DNA from: Nitrospirota bacterium
Lineage (GTDB): Bacteria; Nitrospirota; Thermodesulfovibrionia; UBA6902
Reading direction: 5' to 3'
Assembly (NCBI GenBank): GCA_016217725.1
Contig: JACRHB010000220.1
Coordinates: 11,970 to 75,969 of the forward strand
DNA: 64,000 nucleotides
Under the pieces are notes generated by a model. It saw only the letters and a list, made by a program, of their open reading frames with translations. It had not been told where the DNA came from and did not search any database. Below are positions 3,153 to 63,323 of the stretch, piece by piece; within the stretch, counting starts at the first letter, position 1; the number at the start of each line of letters is the position of its first letter. Made by a program: the position numbers and the translations under genes.

Positions 3153-3161
3153 CAAATAAAT

Positions 3162-5494: not shown

Positions 5495-5530
5495 AGGAGT
5501 TAAGAAGTCAAGGAGTGATGGAGTTTTTTA

Positions 5531-5570
5531 CTTCTGCACTTCTGCACTTTTGCACTTTTGCACTTCTTCG
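5531..5570. repeat. CTGCAC/TTTTGCAC word-repeat (half copy of the GTGCAGAAG-TGCAAAAG hairpin family; full copies at 50048-50212 and 51407-51517)
   Basis: cttctgcacttctgcacttttgcacttttgcacttcttc immediately downstream of the lolD stop. Confidence 0.6.
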
Positions 5571-5576
5571 CTTTTT

Positions 5577-8299: not shown

Positions 8300-9640
8300 T
8301 CATCCTTCCAGCTTTCTCATTATCTCCATAAATCCCGGGAAAGACGTATTAATGCAATCCGTGTCGGAGACCACCGTCTCTCCGTCAGCCAAAAGCCCGG
8401 CGACAGCCAGCGACATTGCGATCCTGTGGTCGCCATAGCTTTGGACCACGGCGGATCTTAACTTTTCCCTACCTTCAATGATAAGGCCGTCTTCAAGCTC
8501 CGCAACATTGACCCCCATCTTCCGCAGCTCCGAAGCAACGGTCGCTATTCTGTCCGATTCCTTCACCCTCAATTCCTTTGCCCCGGTTATCTTTGTTTTT
8601 CCCTGAGCCAATGCCGCAGCTACGCAAAGAATCGGGAATTCGTCTATGGTCTTTGGAACCATCTCGCCGCCGAGATCTATCCCCGAAAGAGTTGAGTGTT
8701 TAACATAAATATCCGCAACGGGCTCTCCGGAGACTTCTCTCTCATTTTCGAGTCTGATGTCGGCGCCCATTGTCTGAAGTATCTCAAGCAACCCCGTTCT
8801 TGTCGGATTGACCCCGGTGTTTTTTATCAATATCTCCGAGCCGGGGACCAATATGCCGGCAGCGATGAAAAAAGCAGCCGATGAGAAATCCGCCGGCACG
8901 GTTAAATCCTGAGGACTTAATACAGTCCTCCCTTTAACGCGTGCCGTTGAACCCTCGACTTTTATCTCTGCTCCTGCCGCTTTCAACATGCGTTCGGTAT
9001 GGTCACGAGACTTTTCAGGCTCAGTTACGGTTGTAACGCCGTCGCAGTAAAGACCGGCAAGCAGAATGGCTGATTTAACCTGTGCGCTTGCAACGGGAGA
9101 TTTATAAGTTATCGGCTTGAGCTCCCCGCCCGTTACACTTAAAGGGGGATAACCGTTTTCCGATTTAAACACCGCGCCCATCTGAGTCAGAGGCTCCATT
9201 ACCCTTCTCATAGGCCTGCGTGTTAATGAGGCGTCGCCTTTCAACATTGCAGAGAACGGCTGACCCGCAAGGACGCCGCAGAGAAGTCTCATCGTTGTTC
9301 CTGAATTCCCGCAGTCTATGTCGCCTTGCGGCTTTCGCAAGCCCGATAGCCCGTTACCGTTGATTATTACTACCCCCCCTTGTTCCCCCCTTAGCAAGGG
9401 GGGGATGGGGGGGTGACTTCTGACTTCTGACTTCTGACTTCTGACTTCTATCTCCACCCCCATCTGTCTGAACGCCCCGACGGTGCTGAGGGGGTCTTCC
9501 GCGTGCAGGAAATTCCTTATAACGCTTTTGCCTTCTGCAAGGGCTGAAAGTATAACGGCGCGATGGGAGATCGATTTGTCCGGCGGGGGGATGAGCTCAC
9601 CGCGCAGAGGGTTTGTGAATTTAATTCTAATCTGATCCAA
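8300..9640 (-). CDS. aroA: 3-phosphoshikimate 1-carboxyvinyltransferase (EPSP synthase), with an in-frame ~23-aa repeat-derived insertion
   Basis: 446 aa; class II EPSPS motifs (ISHRAVILSAL, DCGNSGTTMRLL, RVKESDR); the extra loop VRSQKSEVRSHPPIPPLLRGEQG is encoded by the palindromic/tandem repeat at 9373-9448. Confidence 0.95.
   Translation of the reverse strand: MDQIRIKFTNPLRGELIPPPDKSISHRAVILSALAEGKSVIRNFLHAEDPLSTVGAFRQMGVEIEVRSQKSEVRSHPPIPPLLRGEQGGVVIINGNGLSGLRKPQGDIDCGNSGTTMRLLCGVLAGQPFSAMLKGDASLTRRPMRRVMEPLTQMGAVFKSENGYPPLSVTGGELKPITYKSPVASAQVKSAILLAGLYCDGVTTVTEPEKSRDHTERMLKAAGAEIKVEGSTARVKGRTVLSPQDLTVPADFSSAAFFIAAGILVPGSEILIKNTGVNPTRTGLLEILQTMGADIRLENEREVSGEPVADIYVKHSTLSGIDLGGEMVPKTIDEFPILCVAAALAQGKTKITGAKELRVKESDRIATVASELRKMGVNVAELEDGLIIEGREKLRSAVVQSYGDHRIAMSLAVAGLLADGETVVSDTDCINTSFPGFMEIMRKLEG
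9373..9448. repeat. G-rich palindrome plus (TTCTGAC)n tandem repeat embedded in-frame in aroA
   Basis: cccccccttgttccccccttagcaagggggggatgggggggtgacttctgacttctgacttctgacttc; the same style as the intergenic hairpin repeats. Confidence 0.7.
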
Positions 9641-11651: not shown

Positions 11652-11710
11652 GAAGTTGTTAGTTGTTAGTTGTTAGTCCAAAAACTAAAAACTAACAACT
11701 AACAACTTTT
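11652..11710. repeat. (GTTGTTAG)n/(CTAACAAC)n palindrome between pheA and hisC (same family as 3162-3213)
   Basis: gaagttgttagttgttagttgttagtccaaaaactaaaaactaacaactaacaactttt. Confidence 0.65.
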
Positions 11711-13047: not shown

Positions 13048-13126
13048 GAGTTAAGAGTTAAGAGTTAAGAGTTAAGAGTTGAGAGTTAACGGGCTCTAAA
13101 ACTTTTAACTTTTAACTTTCAACTTC
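13048..13126. repeat. (GAGTTA)n ... (AACTTTTA)n imperfect palindromic word-repeat; overlaps the stop of the Mo-oxidoreductase gene
   Basis: gagttaagagttaagagttaagagttaagagttgagagttaacgggctctaaaacttttaacttttaactttcaacttc. Confidence 0.6.
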
Positions 13127-16100
13127 TTTAATCATCCTCACCATCACGTCCCCGAACCCGGGCATGCCGGTGAAAGGGGAAAGGTTATCCGGATCGAGGC
13201 ATTCATTGATATTCGGAATGTATTCGGAGACATTATTTATAAAACCCGGGCCGGAAGCCTTTTGTCCGCCGGGACCGAATGCGGTCTTGATGACGCCCGG
13301 CATTACTTCTTCCGTCAGAAAAACTTTCCCGCTCACCCGCTTTTTGAAGGGCGTTTCGAGCGCTATGACGTCTCCGTTTTTAACACCCAGCCGCTCGCCG
13401 TCGGAATTATTCACGGCTAAGACGGGAATGGAGCCCCCTTCATCCAGCCGCTTCATGCACTCCGTCTCCGTTTCCGCAAGATACGGGCAGACCGCCGTCA
13501 TCGTCATTGAATGATGGACCCTGCCTGTAATCAACTGGAACGGATACTCCCTGCTTATCTGTTTGTATTGTGAATTCTTCGGATTCCATTTGCAGTCTCT
13601 CCAGTAAAAGGTCGTCGGGAAACCGGTCCCGAGCCTTCTGTTGCTGTTTTCGAGGTAACCGAACTTGAATTCAAATTTCCCTGAGCCGGTCTTCGGATAT
13701 ACGCCGGATGAGGCGCCGGTTGACTTTCTGTGCCTGTAATAGCTTGCAGGCCATACCGCTGCGCCGTTATGTTTTCTGAGCCAGTCCACTGTGAGCGGTT
13801 CGCCCTGTTTGAGGAGCTTCTTTCCCCAGACGGCGGTCGGATTATCCGGTGCGCCGGTTATCAAACAGCCTTCCGGCAGATCCGGGTAAGGGAGCGGTTC
13901 TCCGACATTGTAATACCCCGGCGTTTCGGCAAGGAGCTCATTTATAAAATCCTCTTCTTCGTTATATCTCCGCCCGAAATCTTCCGCCCTGACGTCGGGA
14001 TCGCCGTTTCTTACTAATGCTTCGGAAAGGGTAAGCATAATTTCAAAGGGAGTCCTTGCTTCATAAAGAGGCTTGATTACCTGATCCCTGATCGCTATTT
14101 CCGGGCTCATTGTGTAAACGTCGCTGACTCCCATCCTTTCGAGATAACCGGCTTCGGGCAGAATTATGTCCGCATATTTCCCGGTTTCAGAAATGTGCGT
14201 GTCGATAAAGACTATAAGCTCAAGCTGGTATCTGCTTAAGGATTCCCCTTCATCCGTAGGGGCGGGTTTTAAACCCGCCCCTTCTCCTTCATCAAAAGGA
14301 AGGGGCAGGAGATCGTTTTTCAAGGTCAAGGCGTCAATCCAGTCCGGGGTGCTGCCTGCCGTCATGACGGGATTGCCCGCCCTTGTTATAAAGGCCTTTA
14401 CCGGGTAGGAATAGTCTTTAAAGACCCCGTGCTTTAGCTTTATCCCGTCCCTTATTTTTTGCGGCAGATCGGCCAACACGCCTTTCCATGCAGCCGGGAA
14501 ATCGCCGAAAAGATCTTTATGAAGCCCGGAAAGCTTGTCCGAAACCTCGCTCCCGTCAATATTTCTGCCGACGACCTTTTCCAGAAAATCTTTTCCTGCG
14601 GCTTTATCCCCCCTCCGGGGCTTTTGTGAATCGATGAATACAAGCCCTCCCGGCGTATCGATATTGCCCGTTATCAAGCAGAGCGCCGTCATGAGTATCG
14701 ATGAAACGTCGCCGTTTGCATGGTGTGAAACGCCGTGCATCCCCAGCTCGATCGAGGCGGGCTTTGTGCTGCCGAAAAGGTGCGATATCCTGATGATGTT
14801 TTCCGCGGATATCCCCGTCTTCTCCGCCGCCCATTCAAGGGTGAAAAATTTCATATCGTTTGAAGGGTCTCTCTTTTCCGAGTATGAAAGGAGCGCGTCT
14901 TTGAATTCCTCCCAGCCGTTTGTGTAATTTTTTATGAAATCGTGATCTATATATTTCTGCTCCGGATCATTCTGGATGATGTAATGGAGCATTGCCGCAA
15001 GCAGCGCCGCATCCGTCCCCGGTGTTATGGGAAGCCATATGTCCGCATGAGCGGCGGAATTGGTATATGCGGGGTCAATCACAATATACATGCATCCGTT
15101 TTCTTTTGCCGCAGGTATCCCCCGGGACATGTAATTGAATCTCGTCGCCACAAACGGGTTGGCCCCGAGATTCAGGATGAGCTTTGCGTCATGCTCCCTT
15201 TTGAGATGCAGCCCGCCGTCGTCATCTCTGATCAATAAAGGCCGTTGAACGTCGGGCAGCGGTCTTTCATCGCCTAACATAAGGCCCTGTCCCCATCTGC
15301 GGTTGGGATCGCAAATGCTGCCGTGGTTGTATGTGTTCGGAGTGCCGAAGGCATGAAACAGCCTGTAATACGCCTCTCTGTCGGTCACGTCGCCGCAGTC
15401 TAAAAAAACGGATTCCGCCCCGTATCTGTTTTTTATCTCGAGCAGCTTCTTTGCAATATAATCGGAAGCCTCCTCCCACGTGATTTCCTTCCATTTATCC
15501 TCGCCCCTTTCCCCGGTCCTTATCAGAGGGGTTTTTATCCTGTGAGGAGAGTATGTAAGCTGCAGCCCGGAAGCGCCCTTTGCGCAGAAGGCCCCGTTGT
15601 TTACAAGTGTATGCGGACTGCCGTATATTTTTTTGGCAATGCCGTTGTCAACAAGCACGGATATCCCGCATTCGGAAGGGCACATGGCGCATGATGAATA
15701 TCTTGATTTTAATGTGCCTTCTGTCTGTTCAGGAGATTTCTTTACCTTAATGCGTCGGGTAGATTTTGTGTCTGAGGGGATCGTATAATCCTTCAGCGGA
15801 GCATTGCAGACGTCACCTTTAAAGATGTAAAAGACCGAGGGGTTGGTCCCGAGCTCGGGATTGAGGACTTTTAACTGATGCTTGGAAAGCTCAGCCGATA
15901 TTTCACTTTTGGGGTCGTTTATGTCGCCGAAAAGCATCGCCCTCCCCATGCAGCTCTGCGCACAGACTGGCTGAAGACCCCTTGTAATTCTTTCATAGCA
16001 GAAATCGCATTTCTCGGCCTGTCCCGTGCTCGGGCTTATCTCGATCGCGTTATAAGGGCATTTATCCTCGCACATCTTGCAGCCGATACAGCCGCTCCCA

Positions 16101-16369
16101 TTCAAGATGACGACGCCGTCCTGATTTTTATAAAGGGCTTTCTCCTTGCATTCTTCAATGCACGGTGCAGTATCGCAGTGATTGCAGAGACGGGGAAGGA
16201 AAACTTTTTTGATTTGCGGATAACCGCCGGACCGATAAGTCTCAACCCTGCAGCGGAAAGCTCCAAACGGGATATTATATTCAGCCTTGCACGTTACCTG
16301 ACAGGCGTGGCATCCGATGCACCTGTCGAGGTCGATCAACATTCCGTATCTCTTTTGATGTTTCGCCAT
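13112..16369 (-). CDS. molybdopterin (MopB-family) oxidoreductase fused to an N-terminal 4x[4Fe-4S] ferredoxin module (PsrB/PsrA-like fusion); no Tat signal
   Basis: 1085 aa; the N-terminal ~190 aa carry four CxxCxxCxxxCP ferredoxin motifs (CIGCHACQVTC...CNHCDTAPCIEEC...CIGCKMCEDKCP...); then the MopB CxxCxxxC (CAMCPSECG) and Molybdop_Fe4S4, Molybdopterin and Molydop_binding regions. Confidence 0.85.
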   Translation of the reverse strand: MAKHQKRYGMLIDLDRCIGCHACQVTCKAEYNIPFGAFRCRVETYRSGGYPQIKKVFLPRLCNHCDTAPCIEECKEKALYKNQDGVVILNGSGCIGCKMCEDKCPYNAIEISPSTGQAEKCDFCYERITRGLQPVCAQSCMGRAMLFGDINDPKSEISAELSKHQLKVLNPELGTNPSVFYIFKGDVCNAPLKDYTIPSDTKSTRRIKVKKSPEQTEGTLKSRYSSCAMCPSECGISVLVDNGIAKKIYGSPHTLVNNGAFCAKGASGLQLTYSPHRIKTPLIRTGERGEDKWKEITWEEASDYIAKKLLEIKNRYGAESVFLDCGDVTDREAYYRLFHAFGTPNTYNHGSICDPNRRWGQGLMLGDERPLPDVQRPLLIRDDDGGLHLKREHDAKLILNLGANPFVATRFNYMSRGIPAAKENGCMYIVIDPAYTNSAAHADIWLPITPGTDAALLAAMLHYIIQNDPEQKYIDHDFIKNYTNGWEEFKDALLSYSEKRDPSNDMKFFTLEWAAEKTGISAENIIRISHLFGSTKPASIELGMHGVSHHANGDVSSILMTALCLITGNIDTPGGLVFIDSQKPRRGDKAAGKDFLEKVVGRNIDGSEVSDKLSGLHKDLFGDFPAAWKGVLADLPQKIRDGIKLKHGVFKDYSYPVKAFITRAGNPVMTAGSTPDWIDALTLKNDLLPLPFDEGEGAGLKPAPTDEGESLSRYQLELIVFIDTHISETGKYADIILPEAGYLERMGVSDVYTMSPEIAIRDQVIKPLYEARTPFEIMLTLSEALVRNGDPDVRAEDFGRRYNEEEDFINELLAETPGYYNVGEPLPYPDLPEGCLITGAPDNPTAVWGKKLLKQGEPLTVDWLRKHNGAAVWPASYYRHRKSTGASSGVYPKTGSGKFEFKFGYLENSNRRLGTGFPTTFYWRDCKWNPKNSQYKQISREYPFQLITGRVHHSMTMTAVCPYLAETETECMKRLDEGGSIPVLAVNNSDGERLGVKNGDVIALETPFKKRVSGKVFLTEEVMPGVIKTAFGPGGQKASGPGFINNVSEYIPNINECLDPDNLSPFTGMPGFGDVMVRMIKEVES

Positions 16370-24041: not shown

Positions 24042-25115
24042 ATGCCGAAAACAAATGAAGCGACTGATACGGATTTGAAAGTAATAGAGTGGCTTCAGCA
24101 GGTCGACCGGGAACGAGGGTGACGTCTTTGATAAACGCTGATGACATAAAAATCCTTATCAAAGAAGGGGAAGGGCTTACCGTCGAATTCAAAGAGCGTT
24201 TTACGTCGCGCATTGATGAAGATATTGTTGCATTTGCAAACACCAAGGGCGGGATAATTATTCTGGGCGTCAGAGATGACCGGACTGTAAGCGGCGAGAA
24301 ACTGACAAATGATCTTAAAGCCCGCATCAATTCCGTTGCAAGGAACTGTAATCCCCCGGTTCAGGTAAAGATAAAACAATTACAGAACATCATAGCCATA
24401 GAAGCGCCTCAGGGGGAGGAGAAACCGTATAGTTGCAGTTCCGGTTAATGCCGCCGTACTTTTCCTGATGAAGCATTTAAACCGCCGCAGCGAAATAAAA
24501 GGCATAAATCGTAACGACGTCTATGAGATACCTTTTGAGGCCTTGCGCGAGGCAATCGCCAACGCAATAATTCATCGGGACTACAGCGTGCGCGGCACAA
24601 GTCTTATGGTTGAAGTATATGACGACAGAGTTGAGATAATAAATCCGGGCATATTCCCGGGACGTCAAATGAAAGATTTCGGCAAGATTTCCGTTCGGAG
24701 AAACGAACGTATTGCCGACCTCTTTTTCCGTATGGATAAGGTGGAGCGCGCAGGTACGGGAATAAGGCGGATGAAAGAGGCAATGGCGGAGGCCGGCTTG
24801 CCTGTGCCGGACATTAGACAGACGGATTTTTATACAATTATATTTAAACGGCCAATTGAACGGGCCGGGGTAAAGGTCGGAAGAAAGTCGGAGAGAAAGT
24901 TGGGTGAAAAGTTGGGTGAAAAGTTGGGTGAAAATGAAAAAAGAGTTTTAGAAATTATTGTAAAAAATAAGTTCGCAACAATAACTGAGCTTTCCAGGTC
25001 ATTGGGAATAAGCACGACCGCTGTAGAAAATAATCTTGCAAAACTGAAAGCAAAAGAGATCATCAAACGCATAGGCCCTGATAAGGGAGGACATTGGGAG
25101 ATTATCGACTGCTAA
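24042..25115 (+). pseudogene. AlbA_2 (Schlafen-like) plus HATPase_c_4 plus HTH transcriptional-regulator-family gene, disrupted by frameshifts (fragments 24042-24122, 24089-24448, 24468-25115 in three frames)
   Basis: N-terminal AlbA_2 signature (GEGLTVEFKERFTSRIDEDIVAFANTKGGIIILGV), then a RecG-C-terminal-like ATPase domain (NAIIHRDYSVRGTSLMVEVYDDRVEIINPG) and a wHTH; homologues are single ~450-aa ORFs. Also contains a (GGGTGAAAAGTT)x3 tandem repeat at 24895-24936. Confidence 0.6.
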
Positions 25116-42943: not shown

Positions 42944-43099
42944 CCGTGATCCGTGTCCGTTTAACGTGACCGTAAAAGAGGAAGGATCAATGAACAATGT
43001 GCAATTAACAATTAAAATCTCGCTTCCGCAATTGCTCATTGATAATTGTTCATTGTTAATTGTTTTTACGGACACGTTAACCGGACACGGTTCACAAGA
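42944..43099. repeat. ~155-bp long hairpin element (GTGTCCG / CAATGAACAATTG words) immediately upstream of cbiM; partner copy at 46001-46165 downstream of cbiO
   Basis: Outer arms cgtgatccgtgtccgtttaacgtgaccgtaaaa / ttttacggacacgttaaccggacacggttcac; inner palindromes caattaacaatt and caatgaacaat/attgttcattg. Confidence 0.7.
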
Positions 43100-45117: not shown

Positions 45118-45999
45118 ATGGACATAGACATCAAATTAGATTCGGAGCTCGACAATATCTTTGAAGTCAGAAACCTTCATTACTCTTTCCTGGGAAGATA
45201 TCCGGCGCTGTGCGACGTTTCCTTCGATGTTAAAAGAGGAGAAAGGGTGGTCGTGCTCGGGGCCAACGGCTCCGGGAAGTCAAGCCTCATGAACCTCCTT
45301 GACGGACTGGTTTTCCCACAGAAGGGCGAGATCAGATTCATGGGGCGGGAGATAAGCGAGCAAAATCTGAAGGATGAGAATTTCAACAGGTTCTTCAGGA
45401 ACAAGGTGGGTTTTGTATTCCAGAATTCCGACGTCCAGCTCTTTTCGAGCACTGTTTGGGATGAAATCGCGTTCGGCCCTTTGCACCTCGAGCTGCCTCA
45501 CGATGAGGTGAAAGCGAGGGTTGAAGATATATCGGGCCTGTTAGGGATAAAGAAATTGTGGGAAAGGGCGCCGTACCAATTGAGCGGCGGCGAGAAGAAA
45601 AAGGTAGCCATTGCATCCACGGTCGTCGTCAATCCGGACGTCCTTTTATTGGACGAGCCGACAAACGGCCTGGACCCGAGGAGCCAGGCCGAGCTTGTCG
45701 ATTTCCTGCAGGAGCTGTATCAGGCGGGCAAGACGATAATAATCTCCACTCATGACCTGAACATCGCCAAAATGATCTCGGACCGCGCGATAGTCCTGAA
45801 TGAATCCCATACCGTTGAGGCTGAAGGAGCCACCCGCGACATCCTTGAAAACACCGAGCTCCTTCTGAAAGCCAATCTCATCCATGAGCATATACATTGC
45901 CACGACGGCGAGATCCACAGGCACCCTCACGGCCACGTCGGAGAGCACGACCACGAGCACGGCCGCGGCCATGCGCACAAACACAGTCATAAGCATTAA
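45118..45999 (+). CDS. cbiO: ECF transporter ATPase CbiO with a C-terminal His-rich tail
   Basis: Walker A GANGSGKSS, signature LSGGEKKKVAIA, Walker B LLLDEPTNGLD; the C-terminal ~40 aa HEHIHCHDGEIHRHPHGHVGEHDHEHGRGHAHKHSHKH. Confidence 0.9.
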   Translation: MDIDIKLDSELDNIFEVRNLHYSFLGRYPALCDVSFDVKRGERVVVLGANGSGKSSLMNLLDGLVFPQKGEIRFMGREISEQNLKDENFNRFFRNKVGFVFQNSDVQLFSSTVWDEIAFGPLHLELPHDEVKARVEDISGLLGIKKLWERAPYQLSGGEKKKVAIASTVVVNPDVLLLDEPTNGLDPRSQAELVDFLQELYQAGKTIIISTHDLNIAKMISDRAIVLNESHTVEAEGATRDILENTELLLKANLIHEHIHCHDGEIHRHPHGHVGEHDHEHGRGHAHKHSHKH

Positions 46000-46000: not shown

Positions 46001-46165
46001 ACTCATACGTGTCCGGTTAGCGTGTCCGTGTCCGTAAAACAATTATCAATGAACAATTACCAATGAGCAATTGCGGCAATAGTTTTTTAATTGTTAATTG
46101 CACATTGTTCATTGATCATTCCTCTTTTACGGTCACGAAAAACGGACACGGATCACGAAATCGGT
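46001..46165. repeat. ~160-bp long hairpin element downstream of cbiO (partner of 42944-43099)
   Basis: acgtgtccggttagcgtgtccgtgtccgtaaaacaattatcaatgaacaatt...aattgttaattgcacattgttcattgatcattcctcttttacggtcacgaaaaacggacacggatcacg. Confidence 0.7.
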
Positions 46166-46169: not shown

Positions 46170-46889
46170 ATGCCTTCCGTTGCCGGAATAAAAGCGAGAG
46201 ACGGTTATCTGTTTTTCGTCAACGCCTTGACCGAAGATCCCAGGAACACATCGGCAGTCGTCGAATTGAGCGACCGCTGCGGGGCCTTGGTCCTTACGAG
46301 CAATGAGAAGCAATTGCAGAGATTAAATAACGTCCTCAATAAGTGCGTATCCTGTACACTGAATAAGACGGATGACTTAAGCGATGACCTCGTCAACAAG
46401 GCCGTCTCTTTTCTGAAGAAAGAATTTCATGAGGAGCCGTCGTATAAGACCAAACCTCTGACCTTCCTCCTTCTCGTGGTCGGGACGAACAGTGGCGCGC
46501 AGGGGCGACTTGAATACATCTATATAAGGCACAGGGTTTCGGAAAGGCTTGAAAAAGAGGGCGCGCGGGAGTTCGTGACAACGTTTGACGTAGAGCCTCC
46601 CGTGCCTGCGCATAATGTCTTTTACGGCGATTCGGACATTATCCAGTATCTTGCGCAGCAGGCGGACGGAGAGAATATCCCGATGAATGCCGTCAAGATC
46701 CTGGCCTGTCTTTCAATCCCCGAAGCTTACTATAAGGATAGCGCATTACAGTCAGGCGTCAGCATGGCGTTGCTCTCTGCTGAAAACGGTTTCGAATGGG
46801 TCAGGACGGATGAAGTTCTTTCATTGGCCGACAAAGCTGAAAAAGTTAATTCAATGCTTGTCGAAGGGCTGAATGATATATGGACATAA
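46170..46889 (+). CDS. hypothetical protein, weak proteasome alpha/beta-fold-like N-terminus
   Basis: VAGIKARDGYLFFVNALTED...VVELSDRCGALVLTSNEKQ loosely resembles the proteasome-subunit pattern TAVGIKGKDGVVLAVEK...KIFKIDDHIGCAFAGL; no Thr1. Confidence 0.35.
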   Translation: MPSVAGIKARDGYLFFVNALTEDPRNTSAVVELSDRCGALVLTSNEKQLQRLNNVLNKCVSCTLNKTDDLSDDLVNKAVSFLKKEFHEEPSYKTKPLTFLLLVVGTNSGAQGRLEYIYIRHRVSERLEKEGAREFVTTFDVEPPVPAHNVFYGDSDIIQYLAQQADGENIPMNAVKILACLSIPEAYYKDSALQSGVSMALLSAENGFEWVRTDEVLSLADKAEKVNSMLVEGLNDIWT

Positions 46890-47683: not shown

Positions 47684-48400
47684 TTGTCTCTGACAATATT
47701 ATTAAGATCGCCTGACGGCATCGTCATGGCGGCTGACAGCAGGGTGACGGAGGGCTATACTCTGCAGGGACCGAAGACCAAGGACGACTCCGTTAAGTTC
47801 ATTCGGTTGAGTGATGATTTCGGGGTCATGACGCACGGTCTTTACGACATAGGCACTGACGGGATCAATGCATTAAAAGAGAAGGTCGGCGGAAGCGGGA
47901 ATGGGATTTCATCTTTAGCAGAGCTTATCGGCAATGCGAAGAAAATCTTTGCAGAGGTAAATAATGAATGGTCCGTGAAGAACCCGGAAGTAAAACGAAG
48001 GGACAAAGATACCGGTTTCATAATTGGCGGGTTCGACAGACGGGAAGCGGCGTTTAAAGTCTATAACTTTGAAAGCCCTGAATTTGCTCCGAAACCGGTG
48101 GCCGGCAATTTCTTCATCGCAGGCCAGTGGCAGATAGCCAGGTTTTTGCTGATGAAATTGAACGGCGGTAAAAAGAATATCAATTCCCTTAAAAAGCTGT
48201 CAGCCGTTCTGCTTACGGCAACGGCTTCGGTCGACAAAACAGTCGGCGGCCCCATGCGTATTGCCTCCATTACGGCATCAGAAGGATTTCGATGGGTCGA
48301 TGACGAGGAGATGAAAAAGCTGGCGGACTTTAATGCGTCGTTCCGCAGGGTATTTCAGGAGACCCTCGAAGCGTCTCTGAACGCAGTTTCAAAAAATTAG
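47684..48400 (+). CDS. proteasome beta-subunit-like Ntn-hydrolase fold protein (HslV/20S-beta/Anbu-like)
   Basis: N-terminus MSLTILLRSPDGIVMAADSRVTEGY matches the proteasome-type consensus T-[IL]-h-h-x-x-x-DG-hhhAAD-[ST]-R-x-T; 238 aa. Confidence 0.6.
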   Translation: MSLTILLRSPDGIVMAADSRVTEGYTLQGPKTKDDSVKFIRLSDDFGVMTHGLYDIGTDGINALKEKVGGSGNGISSLAELIGNAKKIFAEVNNEWSVKNPEVKRRDKDTGFIIGGFDRREAAFKVYNFESPEFAPKPVAGNFFIAGQWQIARFLLMKLNGGKKNINSLKKLSAVLLTATASVDKTVGGPMRIASITASEGFRWVDDEEMKKLADFNASFRRVFQETLEASLNAVSKN

Positions 48401-48567
48401 CCACGAATAAACACGAATGAACACGAAGGAATAAAAAAACAAAAAATGAATTTGGACGCAGATAAACGCAGATTATCAAGATTTAAAGAAACAAACTTAT
48501 CTGCGTATATCCGCGAAAATCTGCGTCCTAATTTTATTCGAGTTAATTCGAGTTAATTCGTGGCTAA
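48397..48567. mobile_element. ~170-bp MITE-like element with 12-bp perfect TIRs TTAGCCACGAAT/ATTCGTGGCTAA; second copy at 63155-63323
   Basis: Perfect TIRs; internal inverted repeats (ggacgcagat...atctgcgtcc) and ACACGAAT word repeats; ~85% identity between copies; the left TIR contains the TAG stop of 47684..48400. Confidence 0.7.
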
Positions 48568-48611: not shown

Positions 48612-50120
48612 ATGAACGTGATCTTGGTTCAACCCGCGACTTCGGACAGGGGATTTATTCATCTGGGATTGGGCTTTATTGCAGCCTCCCTGGAGCAAAG
48701 GGGGCATAAGGTAAGCATCCTCGATCTCGGGATAGAAGGCGAGTCCTCAAAAAAGATAAGAAGGATAATCCAGGAGGCGGCCCCGGAAGTGGCGGGGATA
48801 ACGGCGCTTACCCCTACTTATCCGACGGCGCTCAGGATGGCGCAGTTGATAAGGGAGATAAATCCCCGGTGCATAACCGTCTTCGGAGGGACTCATCCCA
48901 CTATATTGACCGAGGAGGTCCTTAATGAGCCCTTCGTGGACATTGTGGTAAGGGGCGAAGGGGAGATAACCATGTGCGAAATATTGGACGCCCTGAAGGA
49001 CGGAAAAGGCCTTTCGAGTATTTCAGGCATTGTCTATAAGGAAAACGGGAAAACGGTCTATAACCCCGACAGGCCTTTCATAGAAGACCTGGACACTCTC
49101 CCGCCGATACCCTGGCATCTCTTTAAAGTGGAAAAATATACCGGCAACCTGAACGGGAGAAGGGCGGTGGGCCTCTCCGCTGCCAGGGGATGTCCTTTCA
49201 GTTGTGTCTTTTGCTACAGAGGCCCGGCTGCCGGCAAGGTCGTAAGGTACTGGAGCCCTGAAAGGGTCGTAAAGGAGGTCAAGCGCGTTAAGGAAAAATA
49301 TAATATAACGGCCTTCCACTTCTGGAACGACGTATTTACTTACGACAAAAAGTGGGCGATCACCCTGTGCGATATGATCATAAAGGAGAAACTGGACATT
49401 GAATGGGACTGTCAGACCAGGGCGGACCTGATCAATGAGGAAGTATTGAGGAAGATGAAAGAGGCGGGCTGCACCGCGATAATGTTAGGCGTGGAGAGCG
49501 GGAGCAATGAGATCCTGAAGCACGTGAACAAGAAGCTGACCAAAGAGCAGATATATGACTCCTTCCAATTGCTCCATCAGGTGGGTTTTGAGACCACCGC
49601 AACTTTTACAATGGGTCTTCCCTGGGACACCAAAGAGACCATCCAGGAAACCATCGATTTCGCCAAGGCGATAAACCCGAGTTTTGCGATGTTCTACGTA
49701 GCCACTCCGTTCCCCGGCTCCCCCATCTGGGAGATCTGCCTTCAGAAAGGGATACCGCTTTCGAGAGACTGGGAGAATTACAGGATCATTCCTTTTGAGA
49801 TAGACCTCGATAAATTCGCCCCTGTCTTTGATACGTCCAGATTGTCCGTAGAGGATTTAAAGAGGTTCATCAAGACCGCCCAGATAGAATTTCAGGTCGG
49901 CAGATTTAAAAAGGGGCAGAGATTAAGGGGTCTGAAAAATATCTACGAGATCTTCGCCTTGATATTCAGACGGAGCAAATCGGTGACAAAGCTGATGCAA
50001 TTGATTTTCAGGGTGCTCGGGGATACGCTCTATCTCATCAGAATAAAGTGCAGAAGTGCAAAAGTGCAAAAGAGCAATAGCGCAGAAGAGCAGAAGAACA
50101 AAAGTGCAAAAGAGCAATAG
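48612..50120 (+). CDS. B12-binding domain radical SAM protein; the C-terminal tail is encoded by a word-repeat
   Basis: MNVILVQP...HLGLGFIAASLEQRGHKVSILD B12-like domain; CxxxCxxC (ARGCPFSCVFCYR); the last ~25 aa (KCRSAKVQKSNSAEEQKNKSAKEQ) read through the GTGCAGAAG repeat. Confidence 0.85.
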   Translation: MNVILVQPATSDRGFIHLGLGFIAASLEQRGHKVSILDLGIEGESSKKIRRIIQEAAPEVAGITALTPTYPTALRMAQLIREINPRCITVFGGTHPTILTEEVLNEPFVDIVVRGEGEITMCEILDALKDGKGLSSISGIVYKENGKTVYNPDRPFIEDLDTLPPIPWHLFKVEKYTGNLNGRRAVGLSAARGCPFSCVFCYRGPAAGKVVRYWSPERVVKEVKRVKEKYNITAFHFWNDVFTYDKKWAITLCDMIIKEKLDIEWDCQTRADLINEEVLRKMKEAGCTAIMLGVESGSNEILKHVNKKLTKEQIYDSFQLLHQVGFETTATFTMGLPWDTKETIQETIDFAKAINPSFAMFYVATPFPGSPIWEICLQKGIPLSRDWENYRIIPFEIDLDKFAPVFDTSRLSVEDLKRFIKTAQIEFQVGRFKKGQRLRGLKNIYEIFALIFRRSKSVTKLMQLIFRVLGDTLYLIRIKCRSAKVQKSNSAEEQKNKSAKEQ

Positions 50121-50212
50121 TGCAGCGCCGGGAAGACTGACTTTCATTGTTTTCCCTTTTGCACTTCTGCACTTTTGTACTTTTGCACTTCTGCACTTTT
50201 GTACTTTTGCAC
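50048..50212. repeat. long hairpin of GTGCAGAAG/TGCAAAAG words (left arm coding, right arm reverse complement)
   Basis: gtgcagaagtgcaaaagtgcaaaagagcaatagcgcagaagagcagaag... / ...ttttgcacttctgcacttttgtacttttgcacttctgcacttttgtacttttgcac. Confidence 0.7.
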
Positions 50213-50233
50213 TAAAGAATCAAGAAAAATTTA

Positions 50234-51448
50234 ATGGACTACAACAAATTAAAAGAAGCCGTCATCACTGAAATCGATAAGCTGGCGGAAGAGATGAAGG
50301 CCGTTGCAAAGGCCATTCATGAAAAACCCGAAATAGGTTATCAGGAATACGAAGCCTCACGGCTCCTCTGCGGCTTTCTCGAAAAAAACGATTTTAAAGT
50401 GAAGCGCAATATCGCAGGGATGGAGACGGCTTTTGCCGCCTCCTATCCTGAAAAGGCGGACGGTCCGACAATCGCCTTGTTGGCCGAATATGACGCCCTG
50501 CCCGGCCTCGGGCACGGATGCGGACATAACCTCATCGGCACTGCGAGCGTCGGGGCTGCCGTCGGATTAAGTAAGGTTTTACCGAAGCTGAAAGGAAGAA
50601 TAGCTGTAATGGGCTGTCCTGCGGAAGAGGCCGGGATAGACAACGCAGGGGGGAAGGTCCGGCTGATCAAAAAAGGATCATTCAAAGATATCGACGCCGC
50701 GTTCATCTTTCATCCCTTCCCCATGACGACGGTCGGGGGAGAGACCACAACGCTGCTCGGGCTTGAATTTAATTTTAAAGGTAACCCCGCACATGCCGCA
50801 GGAAATCCCTGGGACGGGATCAACGCGCTGGACGGTGTATTGCTGACCTTCAACGCGATCAACGCCCTCAGGCAGCATATACGCGACGGCGTGCGCATTC
50901 ACGGCATCATAACCCACGGAGGCGACGCCCCGAATATAGTGCCGGAAAAGGCGTCCGCGCGTTTCTTTCTCCGCACGGAGAATAAAGAGTCTCTGCTCGA
51001 GATAATTCAAAAGGTCAAGGCCTGCGCCGAAGGGGCGGCGACGGCGACGGGGACCAAGCTTGAGGTCAATACTTTCTGCAATCTCTATGACTCAATGAAG
51101 AGCAATTCCGTTCTCGCAAGTATCCTCGAAAAGAACCTGAACGCACTCGGCTTGAGCGTTGAAGGCAGGAAAAAGGGGAAAGGCTCCACGGATTTCGGAA
51201 ACGTGACAAGGGTTGTGCCTGCCTGCGAGCTGGGCCTCAGGCTCGGAAACGGCATCGTCCCGCACACGAGGGAGTTTTTGCACGCGGCGAATTCCGAAGA
51301 GGGCTTCAAGGTAATGATGCAGGGAGCAAAGGTGCTGGCCTTAAGCGCGCTGGACCTTCTCTACTCGGACGGCTTACTTGAGAAGGCGAAAAAGGAATTT
51401 GAAGGAGTGCAGAAGTGCAACAGTACAAAAGTGCAAAAGGAAAAATAA
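50234..51448 (+). CDS. M20-family amidohydrolase (M20D; hippurate hydrolase / aminobenzoyl-glutamate utilisation-like)
   Basis: 404 aa; ...ALLAEYDALPGLGHGCGHNLIGTASVGAA... metal-binding region; the C-terminal tail (VQKCNSTKVQKEK) is encoded by the repeat. Confidence 0.85.
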   Translation: MDYNKLKEAVITEIDKLAEEMKAVAKAIHEKPEIGYQEYEASRLLCGFLEKNDFKVKRNIAGMETAFAASYPEKADGPTIALLAEYDALPGLGHGCGHNLIGTASVGAAVGLSKVLPKLKGRIAVMGCPAEEAGIDNAGGKVRLIKKGSFKDIDAAFIFHPFPMTTVGGETTTLLGLEFNFKGNPAHAAGNPWDGINALDGVLLTFNAINALRQHIRDGVRIHGIITHGGDAPNIVPEKASARFFLRTENKESLLEIIQKVKACAEGAATATGTKLEVNTFCNLYDSMKSNSVLASILEKNLNALGLSVEGRKKGKGSTDFGNVTRVVPACELGLRLGNGIVPHTREFLHAANSEEGFKVMMQGAKVLALSALDLLYSDGLLEKAKKEFEGVQKCNSTKVQKEK

Positions 51449-51517
51449 AGAAGGACCATCTTCCGGAAGCCGGTCTTCTGAACTTTTGATCTTCTGCTCT
51501 TTTGCTCTTTTGCACTG
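51407..51517. repeat. GTGCAGAAG/TGCAAAAG word-repeat hairpin, copy 3
   Basis: gtgcagaagtgcaacagtacaaaagtgcaaaagg...tcttctgctcttttgctcttttgcac. Confidence 0.65.
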
Positions 51518-51526
51518 TTTGAAAAA

Positions 51527-58637: not shown

Positions 58638-58638
58638 C

Positions 58639-60057
58639 ATGAAGATAACGTTGGTATATCCGGGGATCGCGCAGATCGGCTTCGGCAGCTTCGGCCGTGG
58701 CACGCCGACTACGAACCTTATGAGCCTCGGCCTCGGCTATCTCGGGGCGTCTATAAAAAAGAATACAAAACACGAAGTAGACGTCCTAGACCTGAGGAAG
58801 ATGAAGGGATGGGATGACTTCGGCAGGGAGCTGAAAGAGAGGTCGTGCGACATTGCCGGCATTTACACGAATACGGTTAACTTCGAATATGCGATGAAGT
58901 GCGCGGAAATCACCCATAAGATGGGCAAGACGGTAATTGCCGGAGGCCCCCACGCAACGCTCGCCCCTCAGGAGCTTCTCGATACGGGCCACGTCGACCA
59001 CGTCATCACGGGTGAAGCCGAGTTTACCATCGTTGACGTGCTTGAAAAATTTGACAGGGGTCTCGGGATGGAAAAAATTATCCAGGGTCAGCCCGTGGAA
59101 AACCTTGACGAGCTGCCGTTTCCGGACAGGGACCTGTTCAATCTGGACAAACGTCTCAAATACCTTCCGGGCATATTCCCCTTCCCTCCGAGATACGCGG
59201 GCGTGCTTGCGAGCAGGGGCTGCGGCTTCAACTGCAAGTTCTGTCAGCCCCTTGAAAGGAAGATTTTCGGCAAGAGGCTTAAATTTCGCTCTGTAGACAA
59301 CATCATAAAGGAAGTCGCGCAGTTGAAAGAGCGCTACGGCGTCGAGTTCATCATGTTCCAGGACGACCAGCTTACGCAGAACAGGGAATGGGTGCTCGAC
59401 CTGAGCGCCGAGATGAAAAAAGTAGGCATAGACTGGGGCGCGCTCGCAAGGGTGGATACGATAAACGAGCACGTGGTCAAGAGCATGAAGGAGGCGGGAT
59501 GTCTCGTGCTCCAGTTCGGCTTTGAAAGCGGCTCGCAGAAGATACTCGACTTCCTGAGGAAGAGGGCCGGGGTCGAGCAGGCGGTAGAGGCGGCAAGGCT
59601 CTGCCATGAAAACGGCGTGCTCATCTTTGCGAATTATATGATGGGCATCCCGACCGAGACAGAGGAAGACGTTGAAGCGACTTACGAGCTTATGAAAAAA
59701 ATTAACCCTGAGATCCATGCGCTGAGCTATTTCTCACCGATACCTGGAAGCGACCTCTACGATTACTGCAAGGAAAGAGACCTGATAAACGTGACTTCTT
59801 ACGACATGTATGCGCGGGGCGCCGTCGAGAACAAGCTGAAAGGGATAGATTACAAGGCGCTCGACCGTATGAAGAAGAAGATCGAAAAATGCACCCCCGC
59901 ATGGTATCAGGAGAGCTATTACGCCTCATGCGTTATGAAACGGTGGAGGAAGCTCGCAAAACAGGGGCATACCGTACACATGATAAAGGAGCTCGTGACC
60001 CACACGCCTATGCTCGACAGTACGGTGGGGGCGGTCTACAGGATGGTGAAAAGATAG
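58639..60057 (+). CDS. B12-binding domain radical SAM protein
   Basis: ITLVYPGIAQIG...LMSLGLGYLGASIKK...; CxxxCxxC (SRGCGFNCKFCQP). Confidence 0.85.
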   Translation: MKITLVYPGIAQIGFGSFGRGTPTTNLMSLGLGYLGASIKKNTKHEVDVLDLRKMKGWDDFGRELKERSCDIAGIYTNTVNFEYAMKCAEITHKMGKTVIAGGPHATLAPQELLDTGHVDHVITGEAEFTIVDVLEKFDRGLGMEKIIQGQPVENLDELPFPDRDLFNLDKRLKYLPGIFPFPPRYAGVLASRGCGFNCKFCQPLERKIFGKRLKFRSVDNIIKEVAQLKERYGVEFIMFQDDQLTQNREWVLDLSAEMKKVGIDWGALARVDTINEHVVKSMKEAGCLVLQFGFESGSQKILDFLRKRAGVEQAVEAARLCHENGVLIFANYMMGIPTETEEDVEATYELMKKINPEIHALSYFSPIPGSDLYDYCKERDLINVTSYDMYARGAVENKLKGIDYKALDRMKKKIEKCTPAWYQESYYASCVMKRWRKLAKQGHTVHMIKELVTHTPMLDSTVGAVYRMVKR

Positions 60058-60064
60058 AGTTGTT

Positions 60065-60165
60065 ATCCCCTCTCCCTTGATGGGAGAGGGTTAGGGGGAG
60101 GGTGAATCAACAGAATGTCTGAATCACCCTCCCCTTAATCCCCTCCCATCAAGGGAGGGGAAAAG
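60065..60165. repeat. CCCCTC/GAGGGG hairpin-cluster repeat, copy 4 (~45-bp arms)
   Basis: cccctctcccttgatgggagagggttagggggagggtgaatcaacagaatgtctgaatcaccctccccttaatcccctcccatcaagggagggga. Confidence 0.7.
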
Positions 60166-61575: not shown

Positions 61576-61619
61576 TACCCTCTCCCTTGACGGGAGAGGG
61601 TTAGGGAGAGGGTGAATCA
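61576..61619. repeat. CCCTCTCCC/GGGAGAGGG hairpin (single arm of the family) plus upstream (ACAGAGGA)n tandem words at 61522-61550
   Basis: accctctcccttgacgggagagggttagggagagggtgaatcat. Confidence 0.6.
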
Positions 61620-63138
61620 TTGGTGGGCATCAGGAAAAATGAATAGAGGCATATTATTCGGCGGTGTTGCCGTATTGGTCCTTGCGGTCTTCTATCCCGT
61701 CATCGACAGTTTTTTTGTCACCGACGACATGCGGTTGATATATATCTCTTCCCCGATTTCATCGCAAGGCATAACGGATTTCTTTTCTTCCTCCGGAGGA
61801 TGGTTCGCAGGGTTTTACAGGCCGCTCATAAGGACGGCCTTCTTCGTCGATTATTCGTTATATAACTTGAACCCGGCCGGTTATCACATAACCAACCTGC
61901 TGTTTCATATCGCCTCTGCAATAATCGTATTTTACCTTGCAAGGCTTTTGACGGGCAGTGAAAAGACGGGGGCCTTCGCAGCCTTCATCTTCGCCGTGCA
62001 GCCGCTTCACACAGAGGCGGTGTCATGGATTTCGGGCCGGGGGGACGTGATGTTTACTTTTTTTTACCTCGCCGCTCTGTTAAGCTTTCTCAAGTTCAAA
62101 TCGGACGAAGACGGGGAAAAGCCTTATCTTGTCTTATCCGTTATCTGTTTTATACTTTCTTTACTGGCAAAAGAATCGGCGGTTACCCTGCCCGTCATGC
62201 TCTTTCTGACAGAATGGCTCTACAACCGCCGGGCCCCGGATAATACACGTCACGGGATAAAATTCGCGCATCACGCGCCTTTTGTTTTTGTTCTCATCCT
62301 CTACGCCCTCTTTAAATATTTTTTTATCGGGGGCGGCATGTATGACCATGGGATCGGGACCATTACGTTTCTGAGAACGGTATATCATTTCTTTCAACTG
62401 TTCGCGCCGGTAAATATCGACACCTTTAGATTCGGCAACATGCCCGGCTTTATCCTTAATTCAATAATTGTATTGAACCTCGCAGTCCTGCTGTTTGCAT
62501 ATCTGTATTTATGCCGCAATAAAAAAGGGGCGCTGCCTCTCTTTGCATACTGCGCCCTATGGCTGGTGATAACGTCCTTCCCTCTGTACTTTGTGCCGGG
62601 AGTAAGGTTCCTGTATGTTTCATCGGTCGCATCTTCCATTCTCATGGGCGTTATCCTGACCGGGCTAGCGGGCGCCGTGAAAGAGCGGCGCACGAAGGTC
62701 CCGGCGGTTTTAGTCCCCCTGCTGATTCTCAGCATAATTCTCACCTCTTCCGTCAGGACCTTTCAGAGGAACGGCATCTATGATTACGCCGGCGGCATTG
62801 CGGAAAGGGCGCTGGCTCAATTGAAAGATAAACATCCGGAATTCCCCGCGGGCTCCGTTCTTTATTGCATAAATTTCCCGCAGGACTGGGTGCGGGATAC
62901 CGAGGCGTGGGTCAAGCCCATCCCGGTAATGAGCATGGCGGTCAAGGTGAAATACGCGAATGATTCCCTGATCGTGCACGGCGCAATAAAAGGGCTCTCA
63001 ACTTTTGAAGAGAAGCTGGAGTTCCTCGAGAAAAATTCCCTGCGCAAGCACGTAGAGGAAGGCAGGAGCATATACGTTTTCGAGTACAAGGACGGCAGCG
63101 TAATCGAGACGACGGGGCTTTTCAGAAAAGAGATATGA
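61612..63138 (+). CDS. GT-C fold membrane protein (PMT/ArnT-like) with a soluble C-terminal domain
   Basis: 508 aa; ~10 TM; acidic first-loop motif (FFVTDDMRL) characteristic of GT-C family 39/83 enzymes. Confidence 0.55.
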   Translation: MNHWWASGKMNRGILFGGVAVLVLAVFYPVIDSFFVTDDMRLIYISSPISSQGITDFFSSSGGWFAGFYRPLIRTAFFVDYSLYNLNPAGYHITNLLFHIASAIIVFYLARLLTGSEKTGAFAAFIFAVQPLHTEAVSWISGRGDVMFTFFYLAALLSFLKFKSDEDGEKPYLVLSVICFILSLLAKESAVTLPVMLFLTEWLYNRRAPDNTRHGIKFAHHAPFVFVLILYALFKYFFIGGGMYDHGIGTITFLRTVYHFFQLFAPVNIDTFRFGNMPGFILNSIIVLNLAVLLFAYLYLCRNKKGALPLFAYCALWLVITSFPLYFVPGVRFLYVSSVASSILMGVILTGLAGAVKERRTKVPAVLVPLLILSIILTSSVRTFQRNGIYDYAGGIAERALAQLKDKHPEFPAGSVLYCINFPQDWVRDTEAWVKPIPVMSMAVKVKYANDSLIVHGAIKGLSTFEEKLEFLEKNSLRKHVEEGRSIYVFEYKDGSVIETTGLFRKEI

Positions 63139-63154: not shown

Positions 63155-63323
63155 TAGCCACGAATGAGCACGAATAAACACGAAGGAATAAAAAACAAAA
63201 AATAAATTTGGACGCGGATGAACGCAGATTATCAGGATTTAAAAAACCAAACTCATCTGCGTATATCTGCGAAAATCTGCGTCCTGATTTTATTCGTGAT
63301 AATTTGTGAAAATTCGTGGCTAA
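63155..63323. mobile_element. MITE-like element with TAGCCACGAAT TIRs, copy 2
   Basis: atagccacgaatgagcacgaataaacacgaagg...ggacgcggatgaacgcagatt...atctgcgtatatctgcgaaaatctgcgtcc...aattcgtggctaat. Confidence 0.7.

Follow-up and report, generated by a model that had tools for sequence, protein, structure and literature searches.

Why do two consecutive genes of one operon both end inside a repeat hairpin and take from it their last codons and their stop? This question is raised by a stretch of 64,000 nucleotides (hereafter the window) from a Nitrospirota bacterium (Thermodesulfovibrionia; UBA6902; contig JACRHB010000220.1 of assembly GCA_016217725.1). In this window, a gene encoding a B12-binding radical SAM enzyme and the next one, encoding an M20 amidohydrolase, each run at their 3' end into a hairpin whose arms are short tandem repeats. 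We call these hairpins H10 and H11. They are probably copies of a dispersed non-coding foldback repeat with arms of tandem GTGCARAA units, of the same kind as the short tandemly repeated repetitive (STRR) sequences and long simple sequence repeats (LSSRs), which would behave like a small palindromic mobile element and not as a terminator.

Tandem octamer hairpins at the ends of two consecutive genes

Tandem Repeats Finder returned the unit GTGCARAA with a period of 8 in all four arrays of H10 and H11. The preliminary description had read a tandem 9-mer, GTGCA(G/A)AAG; these 9-mers overlap by a shared G and the real period is 8. The left arm of H10 consists of the units GTGCAGAA and GTGCAAAA, together with the degenerate forms GAGCAATA, GCGCAGAA and GAACAAAA, and also contains a 40-nt higher-order repeat (2 copies, 90% match), while its right arm is a perfect 24-nt repeat (2.4 copies, 100% match). 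The right arm had been described as the reverse complement of the left one, and the two arms of H10 are indeed inverted over 58–64 nt with 80–83% complementarity. The outer ends of the octamer hairpins read AGTGCA...TGCACT. We scanned the window for two octamer units with at most 3 mismatches and found 27 matches against 0.65 expected, all of them confined to three intervals (5523-5571, 50048-50212 and 51399-51515). Folding of the 3' ends of the two genes, which had been suggested as a check, showed that both hairpins are far more stable than their shuffled sequences (Table 1), since for each of them none of 200 shuffles was equally stable.

The contribution of the hairpins to the two genes is as follows. 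The left arm of H10 provides the radical SAM gene with its last 24 codons (50046-50117) and with its TAG stop (50118-50120), which lies within a mutated unit, GAGCAATAG. The last 13 codons of the M20 gene (51407-51445, tail VQKCNSTKVQKEK) derive from the left arm and the loop of H11, and its TAA stop (51446-51448) stands in the loop, shortly after the left arm. The claim that hairpins give Lys-rich C-terminal tails and stop codons to two consecutive genes thus agrees with the coordinates, the sequences and the open reading frames (ORFs). That both ORFs end within a left arm is correct for the radical SAM gene, but not for the M20 gene. Downstream, the start codon of the M20 gene is found 20 nt past the end of the H10 right arm, and the TTG start of the pyruvyl-transferase gene (51527) 9 nt past that of H11.

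The remaining matches of the scan belong to a third octamer element, located between the stop of a LolD-like ABC ATPase gene (5494) and the probable ATG of the next gene (5577). LolD is the best NCBIfam match of this ATPase, with a score below the cutoff. The "half-copy" formerly noted after lolD is an octamer array (5530-5575) starting 36 nt past the stop, but it is on the opposite strand and has a partner arm (5501-5523), with which it forms a weak asymmetric hairpin (-22 kcal/mol).

Chimeric or fold-back joins made by a short-read assembler might also create such structures, and the right arm of H10 is indeed hard to assemble. In an independent Logan assembly (run SRR12113407, from a groundwater community), the contigs break within the perfect 24-nt repeat of this arm. 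However, the two contigs concerned, L107 (48514-50185) and L001 (50184-54448), are both 100% identical to the window. In L107, the radical SAM gene is joined to the whole of the left arm and loop of H10 as well as to 30 nt of its right arm, and L001 carries the remainder of this right arm joined to the M20 gene, plus the complete H11. The hairpins are therefore not an artefact of a single assembler, and only the copy number of the 24-nt repeat is uncertain, because the contigs end inside it. Moreover, hairpins of a like class are present in many independent metagenome-assembled genomes (MAGs). An assembly artefact is hardly credible.

Two other classes were considered for these arrays. A clustered regularly interspaced short palindromic repeat (CRISPR) array was dropped because spacers are lacking and the period is 8. 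Repeats under selection as protein-coding sequence were also dropped, since 8 is not divisible by three.

Derived insertions at closed gene junctions

Aligning the orthologous proteins, another check that had been proposed, indicates that the tails are specific to the lineage of the window. The M20 tail is absent from all 44 homologues aligned (down to about 63% identity), which end at a conserved ...KAKKEF followed by 2–8 variable residues. The radical SAM tail is likewise absent from all 27 homologues aligned, which stop soon after ...YLIRIK with short unrelated tails. A tail held in common by the proteins but not by their nucleotide sequences, which would have spoken against a repeat origin, was looked for among these homologues and was not seen.

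The two genes lie within a co-directional gene cluster (46170-63138), which codes for B12-radical SAM enzymes, a polysaccharide pyruvyl transferase, a PMT/TMEM260-like glycosyltransferase and CapK-like ligases. The closest syntenic locus, L002, comes from a Nitrospiraceae MAG and has the same gene order, with 72–88% nucleotide identity over 21 kb (about 72% for the radical SAM gene and 84% for the M20 gene). In L002, the spacers between the radical SAM, M20 and pyruvyl-transferase genes are 7 nt long and without hairpins; the radical SAM protein ends in ...IRIKLANRNQ and the M20 protein in EFNSSP. The alignment with L002 reveals about 165 nt (H10) and 110 nt (H11) of extra DNA in the window. 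This extra DNA begins directly after ...ATAAA (H10) and ...GAATTTGAAGG (H11), where it replaces LANRNQ and NSSP with their stops. Two further loci, L085 and L086, also lack a hairpin at the M20/pyruvyl-transferase junction, the two genes overlapping or being 9 nt apart; as these were the only two syntenic loci obtained from a metagenome scan for close M20 relatives, the insertion cannot be dated from them. Since the junctions are closed and hairpin-free in three syntenic relatives, the sequence comparison shows both hairpins to be derived insertions into ancestrally closed junctions (spacers of 0–9 nt), and on the same alignments each insertion is shown to have taken out the native last 4–6 codons and the native stop. 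As a separate observation on this cluster, an extra B12-binding radical SAM gene (55580-56863) is missing from the otherwise collinear L002, in which positions 15166-15202 correspond to window positions 55501-57029.

Two architectures had been put forward, namely an insertion into gene ends with read-through until a stop, or a regulated terminator within the ORF. The first one fits the data: the tails are lineage-specific, the junctions of L002, L085 and L086 are closed, and the octamer is stop-free. Indeed, all six frames of GTGCAGAA and GTGCAAAA are free of stops; 24 nt of array encode VQKCRSAE or VQKCKSAK on the sense strand and FCTSALLH on the antisense strand. The open runs in the three frames are 33, 72 and 222 nt for H10 and 81, 39 and 120 nt for H11. 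Because the octamer is stop-free, ribosomes entering the left arm would carry on to the TAG of a mutated unit (GAGCAATAG) or the TAA of the loop, and the tails are Lys-rich because the unit is rich in AAG and AAA. We infer that the predicted tails are tolerated by-products rather than selected features. The heptamers AGTTGTT, GAGTTAA and AACTTTT, found elsewhere in the window, have stops on both strands and can add a few extra codons at most.

The second architecture supposes that the hairpins are intrinsic terminators, or attenuators regulated by translation, in which the upstream ORF ends in the stem and ribosome occupancy decides whether the stem forms. The stems are very stable, and because the stops are placed in the left arm or in the loop, a ribosome terminating there would melt them. 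However, no T-run follows either outer stem (the sequence 3' of 50213 reads CTAAAGAATCAAG and that 3' of 51517 reads GTTTGAAAAATTG). A consensus terminator scan of the region listed neither outer stem and gave 8 terminator-like matches against 9.8 in shuffles of this region. The sole candidate is the small inner hairpin of the H11 loop (51464-51480, then AACTTTTGAT), which is terminator-like in the scan with a weak fit. The arms of H10 and H11 (40–80 nt, A/T-rich, with loops of 30–35 nt) are unlike a compact G+C-rich terminator stem. Moreover, both hairpins lie within the co-directional cluster rather than at the end of a transcription unit, and the orthologues in L002 are 7 nt apart, so that termination there would silence the downstream genes. 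No repeat hairpin of the window is located between convergent genes. In addition, fold energies and G-U counts on the sense and antisense strands show no consistent bias, the sense strand being the more stable in 6 out of 11 elements. Without a U-tract and inside a co-directional operon, the terminator reading is not supported, and we consider it very unlikely.

For the foldback insertion, we draw the following course of events. The octamer hairpins entered two junctions of a co-directional glycan-modification operon in the lineage of the window. Each insertion removed the native end and stop of the upstream gene, and translation would then continue into the stop-free left arm until a mutated unit or the loop. 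The arms have subsequently diverged by independent slippage, with a 40-nt repeat on the left and a 24-nt repeat on the right. Spread may have occurred by a copy mechanism, with either a transposase acting in trans or recombination and template switching. From established knowledge, arm growth by slippage and template-switch correction of quasipalindromes would be plausible contributors.

Related repeat elements in the window and in other genomes

The octamer hairpins are not isolated in the window, which contains 25 arrays with a period of 6–12 (0.39 per kb). A reverse-complement partner within 150 nt was found for 12 of these 25 arrays, versus none for the direct and the reversed-only controls. 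In total, the window holds about ten palindromic repeat elements, most of them with tandem arms of 7–10 nt units. They sit between co-directional genes and reach within 4–20 nt of the next start codon. Along the 21 kb common to L002, each element site is closed or much shorter in L002; for example, the junction corresponding to 46027-46157 is only 36 nt long. Five ORFs of the window obtain their stop codon wholly or partly from an element (stops at 50120, 51448, 13112, 48400 and 60057). In these compact operons an insertion is tolerated only at the extreme ends of genes, and elements therefore often overwrite stops.

Table 1. Repeat elements and host genes discussed in the text, with positions in the window
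Feature	Position	Strand	Description
B12-binding radical SAM ORF	48612..50120	+	502 aa, ends in ...IRIKCRSAKVQKSNSAEEQKNKSAKEQ
H10 hairpin	50045-50213	+	169 nt; fold -82.1 kcal/mol, z -8.9
H10 left arm	50045..50125	+	about 10 octamer units; Tandem Repeats Finder array 50045-50124, 10.0 copies
H10 loop	50126..50155	+	short inner stem GGGAAGAC...GTTTTCCC
H10 right arm	50156..50213	+	7.2 copies of CTTTTGCA/CTTCTGCA/CTTTTGTA (Tandem Repeats Finder)
M20 amidohydrolase ORF	50234..51448	+	404 aa, ends in ...KKEFEGVQKCNSTKVQKEK
H11 hairpin	51406-51517	+	112 nt; fold -42.6 kcal/mol, z -3.35
H11 left arm	51406..51439	+	4.2 octamer units (Tandem Repeats Finder)
H11 loop	51440..51474	+	contains the M20 stop; inner palindrome 51454-51475
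H11 right arm	51475..51517	+	degenerate CTTCTGCT/CTTTTGCT/CTTTTGCA units; Tandem Repeats Finder array 51483-51513, 3.9 copies
Third octamer element	5501..5575	+	purine arm 5501-5523, degenerate, period 8; arm 5530-5575 of expanded ACTTCTGC/ACTTTTGC
Heptamer hairpin (AGTTGTT)n/(AACAACT)n	3161..3213		fills the lysS-lolC/E-like spacer
AGTTGTT hairpin, copy 2	11653..11708		92-94% identical to 3161-3213; between pheA and an aminotransferase gene, genes on minus strand
In-frame insertion in aroA (EPSP synthase, 8300..9640)	9366..9449	-	(GAAGTCA)5 + C7ATC7...G-rich hairpin CCCCCCCATCCCCCCC...GGGGGGAACAAGGGGGGG
Heptamer hairpin (GAGTTAA)6/(AACTTTT)3.7	13048..13125	-	arm gives EVES and the TAA stop of molybdopterin oxidoreductase 13112..16369 (minus)
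132-nt element	42945..43076	+	AATTGTT/CATTGAT heptamer arrays, CGTGATCCGTGTCCGT ends
132-nt element, copy 2	46027..46157	-	inverted, 90% identical; spacer between 45118..45999 and 46170..46889
170-nt nested palindromic element	48398..48567	+	perfect terminal inverted repeats TAGCCACGAAT/ATTCGTGGCTA, decamer arrays (CACGAATAAA), inner GGACGCAGAT hairpin
170-nt element, copy 2	63155..63323	+	89% identical; after gene 61612..63138
G-rich palindromic element CCCTCTCCCTTGATGGGAGAGGGTTAGGGGGAGGGTGA...	60058..60157		exactly at the stop codon of gene 58639..60057

Several of these elements show how a gene end is replaced. Gene 47684..48400 ends with a TAG that forms the first three bases of the 170-nt element, and its product is 13 residues shorter than the orthologue in L002; the TA present at both ends of the element could be a TA target duplication. 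At the insertion point of the G-rich element, the stop of gene 58639..60057 has changed from TAA to TAG, where L002 has AGATAAttaaaATG. Partial copies of this element are present at two other junctions (4464-4500 and 61578-61619), and the GAAAAGATA found on both of its sides could be either a 9-bp target duplication or a part of the palindrome. L002 carries its own heptamer hairpin (21056-21083; (GAAGTGR)4 ... ACTTCCT/ACTTTTA), which supplies ...TGSGK and a TAA to the orthologue of window gene 61612..63138. This hairpin and the 170-nt element of the window occupy one junction, which points to a shared hot spot. In aroA, the insertion is in-frame; the roughly 20 residues that it adds (RSQKSEVRSHPPIPPLLRGEQG) have no counterpart in the solved EPSP synthase 3rmt. 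A similar C7ATC7/G-rich hairpin is also found in-frame in cbiA of loci L058 and L079.

Further repeats were observed in the window. The Ni/Co transporter genes, from cbiM to the ABC ATPase gene, lie between the two 132-nt copies. The same nickel/cobalt uptake cluster contains His-rich coding repeats (40723-40815; HEHHH-type, period 6/12/18; L002 equivalent 853-924), and the product of gene 45118..45999 has a His-rich C-terminal tail, ...HEHGRGHAHKHSHKH. These His-rich repeats are ordinary metal-binding tracts, outside the hairpin class. Gene 24468..25115 includes a period-12 coding repeat (24876-24934; AAAGTTGGGTGA, peptide GEKL three times) within the linker that joins the HATPase_c_4 domain to the winged-helix domain; in contrast to the 7–8 nt arrays, it has a period divisible by three. 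A 42-nt near-perfect palindrome (20035-20076) overlaps the start of a TPR gene. The intergenic regions 39624-39729 and 47556-47659 have two segments of 34–37 nt in common (92–97% identity), and other repeats of 31–53 nt are located at 6425-6477, 6608-6640, 10502-10584, 14255-14285 and 41899-41931.

To follow the octamer beyond the window, we searched for three exact units in one genome per prokaryotic species and obtained 82 stretches, against about 0.03 expected by chance. About 22 of them, at different loci, belong to Nitrospirae/Thermodesulfovibrionia MAGs, one of which is the source of L002. The others are scattered (Xanthomonadaceae, Streptomyces and Bacteroidales among them) and are mostly single-arm arrays. 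In the 22 related loci, array density is 0.40 per kb versus 0.10 per kb in control loci, and heptamers are dominant (period 7 in 39 of 55 arrays). In orthologous sites, elements are inherited and differ by the gain or loss of units (L027/L060 and L021/L055).

In these relatives, long ORFs read in-frame through 13 of the 22 octamer arrays, and in 12 of these 13 the sense strand carries GTGCAGAA. Ten cases were scanned for Pfam domains, which in all of them either extend across the array or border it; the proteins are KdsB, a histidine phosphatase, CbiA/CobB (two sites), CarA, Tgt, CbiL, a family-4 uracil-DNA glycosylase (UDG) and a BcrAD-type activase. The 3' arm inside these ORFs is not the exact complement of the 5' arm, which would encode the hydrophobic FCTSALLH, but a different octamer, ACTTCCNG (peptide TS.LPDF.), and the two arms pair through GAAGU/ACUUC only. 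When a 48-residue translated array was compared with 5.8 billion proteins, only 8 weak matches to short unannotated proteins were obtained, because the real inserts (11–14 residues) are too short to score.

Could the Lys-rich tails themselves be adaptive, in contact with membranes or nucleic acids or as degradation tags, the repeat being a mere vehicle? The strand bias of the arrays inside ORFs, which encode the hydrophilic SAEVQKCR and not FCTSALLH, indicates that selection at the protein level acts on the tolerated orientation. However, such a bias amounts to purifying tolerance and is no evidence for a function. Moreover, the tails occur in this lineage only, two unrelated enzymes received the same one, its 8-residue peptide period is common only because the nucleotide unit is shared, and its length is fixed by a chance stop in a mutated unit. 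An adaptive role of the tails is highly improbable.

Inverted octamer arrays also exist in other phyla, in Bacteroidales/Prevotellaceae (L030, 1-300; L039, 6140-6490; L081, 4300-4530), in L037 and L044, and in L049 (Thiohalocapsa). The arm order of the Bacteroidales arrays is reversed, (CTTTTGCA)3-4 ... (TGCAAAAG)3, with an interior of about 200 nt that contains a long AT-rich perfect palindrome, and L030 and L039 clearly carry one element in two MAGs. We considered that the Bacteroidales and Thiohalocapsa loci might have an element in common with the window, and rejected it as the arm order is reversed and the interiors are unrelated.

The hairpins might alternatively have been selected as RNA elements of the operon, such as a stabiliser against 3'-exonucleases, an RNase III site or a translation-dependent mask of the start codon. 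They fill the spacers and end close to the next start codon, and translational coupling would be kept, as the upstream ORFs terminate within the 5' arm. In L058 and L079, where the array is identical, the inner hairpin differs by compensatory changes that keep it intact. STRR hairpins have been discussed as transcript stabilisers or coupling devices (PMC2670836). On the other hand, three syntenic relatives run the operon with closed junctions and without hairpins, the unit sequences vary between sites, and neither stability nor G-U pairs are in excess on the sense strand. When the whole window was compared with Rfam, nothing reached the gathering scores. In addition, the template-switch correction known from quasipalindrome mutagenesis keeps palindromes perfect without selection. 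Selected RNA elements are thus unlikely, although a secondary effect at the RNA level (exonuclease barrier, RNase III site or start-codon unmasking) is possible.

The interpretation of H10 and H11 as copies of a dispersed repeat is strengthened by the recurrence of one unit within one genome, whereas units are otherwise very diverse; this argues for dispersal and not for independent origin. Other unit families of the window are also multi-copy, with 89–94% identity. Several observations weigh against this interpretation. Scanned with Pfam and NCBIfam, 38 ORFs of the window yielded no transposase, so mobility is deduced from distribution alone. The flanks that could represent target duplications (AGAATAA/AGAATCA for H10, TTTGAAG/TTTGAAA for H11) match no better than shuffled flanks (p = 0.34 and 0.11, respectively). 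The similarity between the octamer copies is limited to the simple arrays, the loops not being clearly homologous, and an independent local origin from a shared slippage-prone motif is conceivable. The compensatory changes in L058/L079 could mean that the structure is selected and not neutral. Finally, the tails are known as predicted translations only.

Comparison with known repeats and significance

The octamer family was not found in the searchable literature, nor was anything specific on repeats in Thermodesulfovibrio/Nitrospirae. It differs from the known kinds of repeats in its unit, its host phylum, its paired-array form and its stop-free coding behaviour. STRR1 to STRR3 are heptamer units of heterocystous cyanobacteria, and an octamer GTGCARAA in Nitrospirota is not one of them. 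In filamentous cyanobacteria, STRR hairpins are located between hupS and hupL, where a role in transcript stability or translational coupling was proposed (PMC2670836). As in our window, arms of short tandem repeats fold there into a hairpin between co-transcribed genes. The STRR unit is, however, 7 nt long instead of 8 and of unrelated sequence, whereas here the host is a Nitrospirota, the 5' arm is translated and gives the stop, and the array is also found in-frame inside enzymes of relatives.

TAACTGA heptamers form direct repeats in Beggiatoaceae, Cyanobacteria and Bacteroidetes; 13 sets overlap the upstream stop codon and only one inverted set is reported (PMC4679880). According to the same source, LSSRs (Mrazek 2007) are abundant tandem arrays of 5–11 nt units in a few scattered lineages. 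Like these repeats, the arrays studied here are tandem, mostly intergenic, abut start codons and overlap upstream stops. Head-to-tail 8-nt units beyond chance, a high array density and the dominance of heptamers are also as in arrays of the LSSR/STRR type, and the window heptamers TAACAAC, TAACTCT and TAACTTT have the TAAC(T) core. However, half of the window arrays are paired as inverted arms, unlike the direct TAACTGA repeats. Moreover, TAACTGA has stops in all forward frames and overlaps genes by at most 18 nt, whereas GTGCARAA is stop-free and gives tails of 13–24 residues.

Transposable elements of the miniature inverted-repeat type (MITEs) are another possible comparison. In Coxiella, QMITE1/2 overlap the C-termini of genes, and enhC of the Dugway strain gains 33 residues and a stop from QMITE2 (PMC5896051; review PMC10969869). 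Like MITEs, the elements of the window are small (less than about 500 bp), palindromic, multi-copy, non-coding and mainly intergenic, with overlaps at C-termini; H10 and H11 (169 and 112 nt) have inverted ends, and there are three octamer copies in 64 kb. For the octamer hairpins, neither a target-site duplication better than shuffled flanks, nor a partner insertion sequence among the scanned window ORFs, nor a conserved unique core was found, and their arms consist of simple tandem arrays in which slippage produces change.

Repetitive extragenic palindromic (REP) sequences, with their assemblies as bacterial interspersed mosaic elements (BIMEs) and REP doublets forming hairpins (REPINs), are 20–40 bp long with a GTAG or CGTC head, depend on REP-associated tyrosine transposases (RAYTs), and stabilise mRNA rather than terminate (PMC3733652, PMC3116915). 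They are also intergenic palindromes within operons. In our case, however, the ends read AGTGCA...TGCACT, the arms are 40–80 nt long and no Y1 transposase is present in the scanned window ORFs. Eukaryotic foldback (FB) transposons have long inverted arms of short tandem repeats with variable copy number, at the kilobase scale. The tandem-repeat inverted arms are alike, but FB transposons are eukaryotic and much larger, and no relationship is implied.

The in-frame insertions are best compared with Rickettsia palindromic elements (RPEs). As summarised in a review, RPEs are found in-frame in housekeeping genes unrelated to one another, where loops or linkers tolerate them (Ogata 2000, 2002, cited in PMC10969869); they are described there as complex sequences of about 100–150 bp confined to Rickettsia. 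On this description, the 13 of 22 in-frame loci of relatives and the window aroA are similar, whereas H10 and H11 are at gene ends and not inside genes. Tandem 7–8 nt arrays in Thermodesulfovibrionia are set apart from RPEs, as characterised in that review, by taxon and architecture, and we do not claim membership.

A broader view is possible, which we put forward tentatively and hold to be less probable than not. In Thermodesulfovibrionia, foldback repeats with tandem 7–8 nt arms may colonise spacers and gene ends and also settle in-frame in core enzymes (KdsB, Tgt, CarA, CbiA, CbiL, UDG, AroA), in loops and linkers. They might constitute an undescribed, second independent counterpart of RPEs, shaped by coding constraint (GTGCAGAA on the sense strand, ACTTCCNG as 3' arm), with a hairpin that is actively maintained, to which the compensatory changes in L058/L079 would point. 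Active maintenance would imply either a dedicated mechanism of spreading and maintenance or a post-transcriptional role in operon expression. H10 and H11 alone are of modest interest, and the in-frame tandem-octamer foldbacks in core enzymes of Thermodesulfovibrionia are the more interesting lead.

In operons whose genes are 0–9 nt apart, any element entering between two genes must overwrite a stop, and a stop-free unit then makes a new tail. In the repeat-rich MAGs of this lineage, the last 5–25 residues of many proteins and some internal loops would be encoded by repeats and be non-homologous to those of their orthologues, which affects annotation, the boundaries of protein families and structure prediction. 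If the wider pattern holds genome-wide, it would be the second example, after Rickettsia, of palindromic selfish DNA inside housekeeping proteins, and a tractable case for the origin and spread of short-period repeat hairpins.

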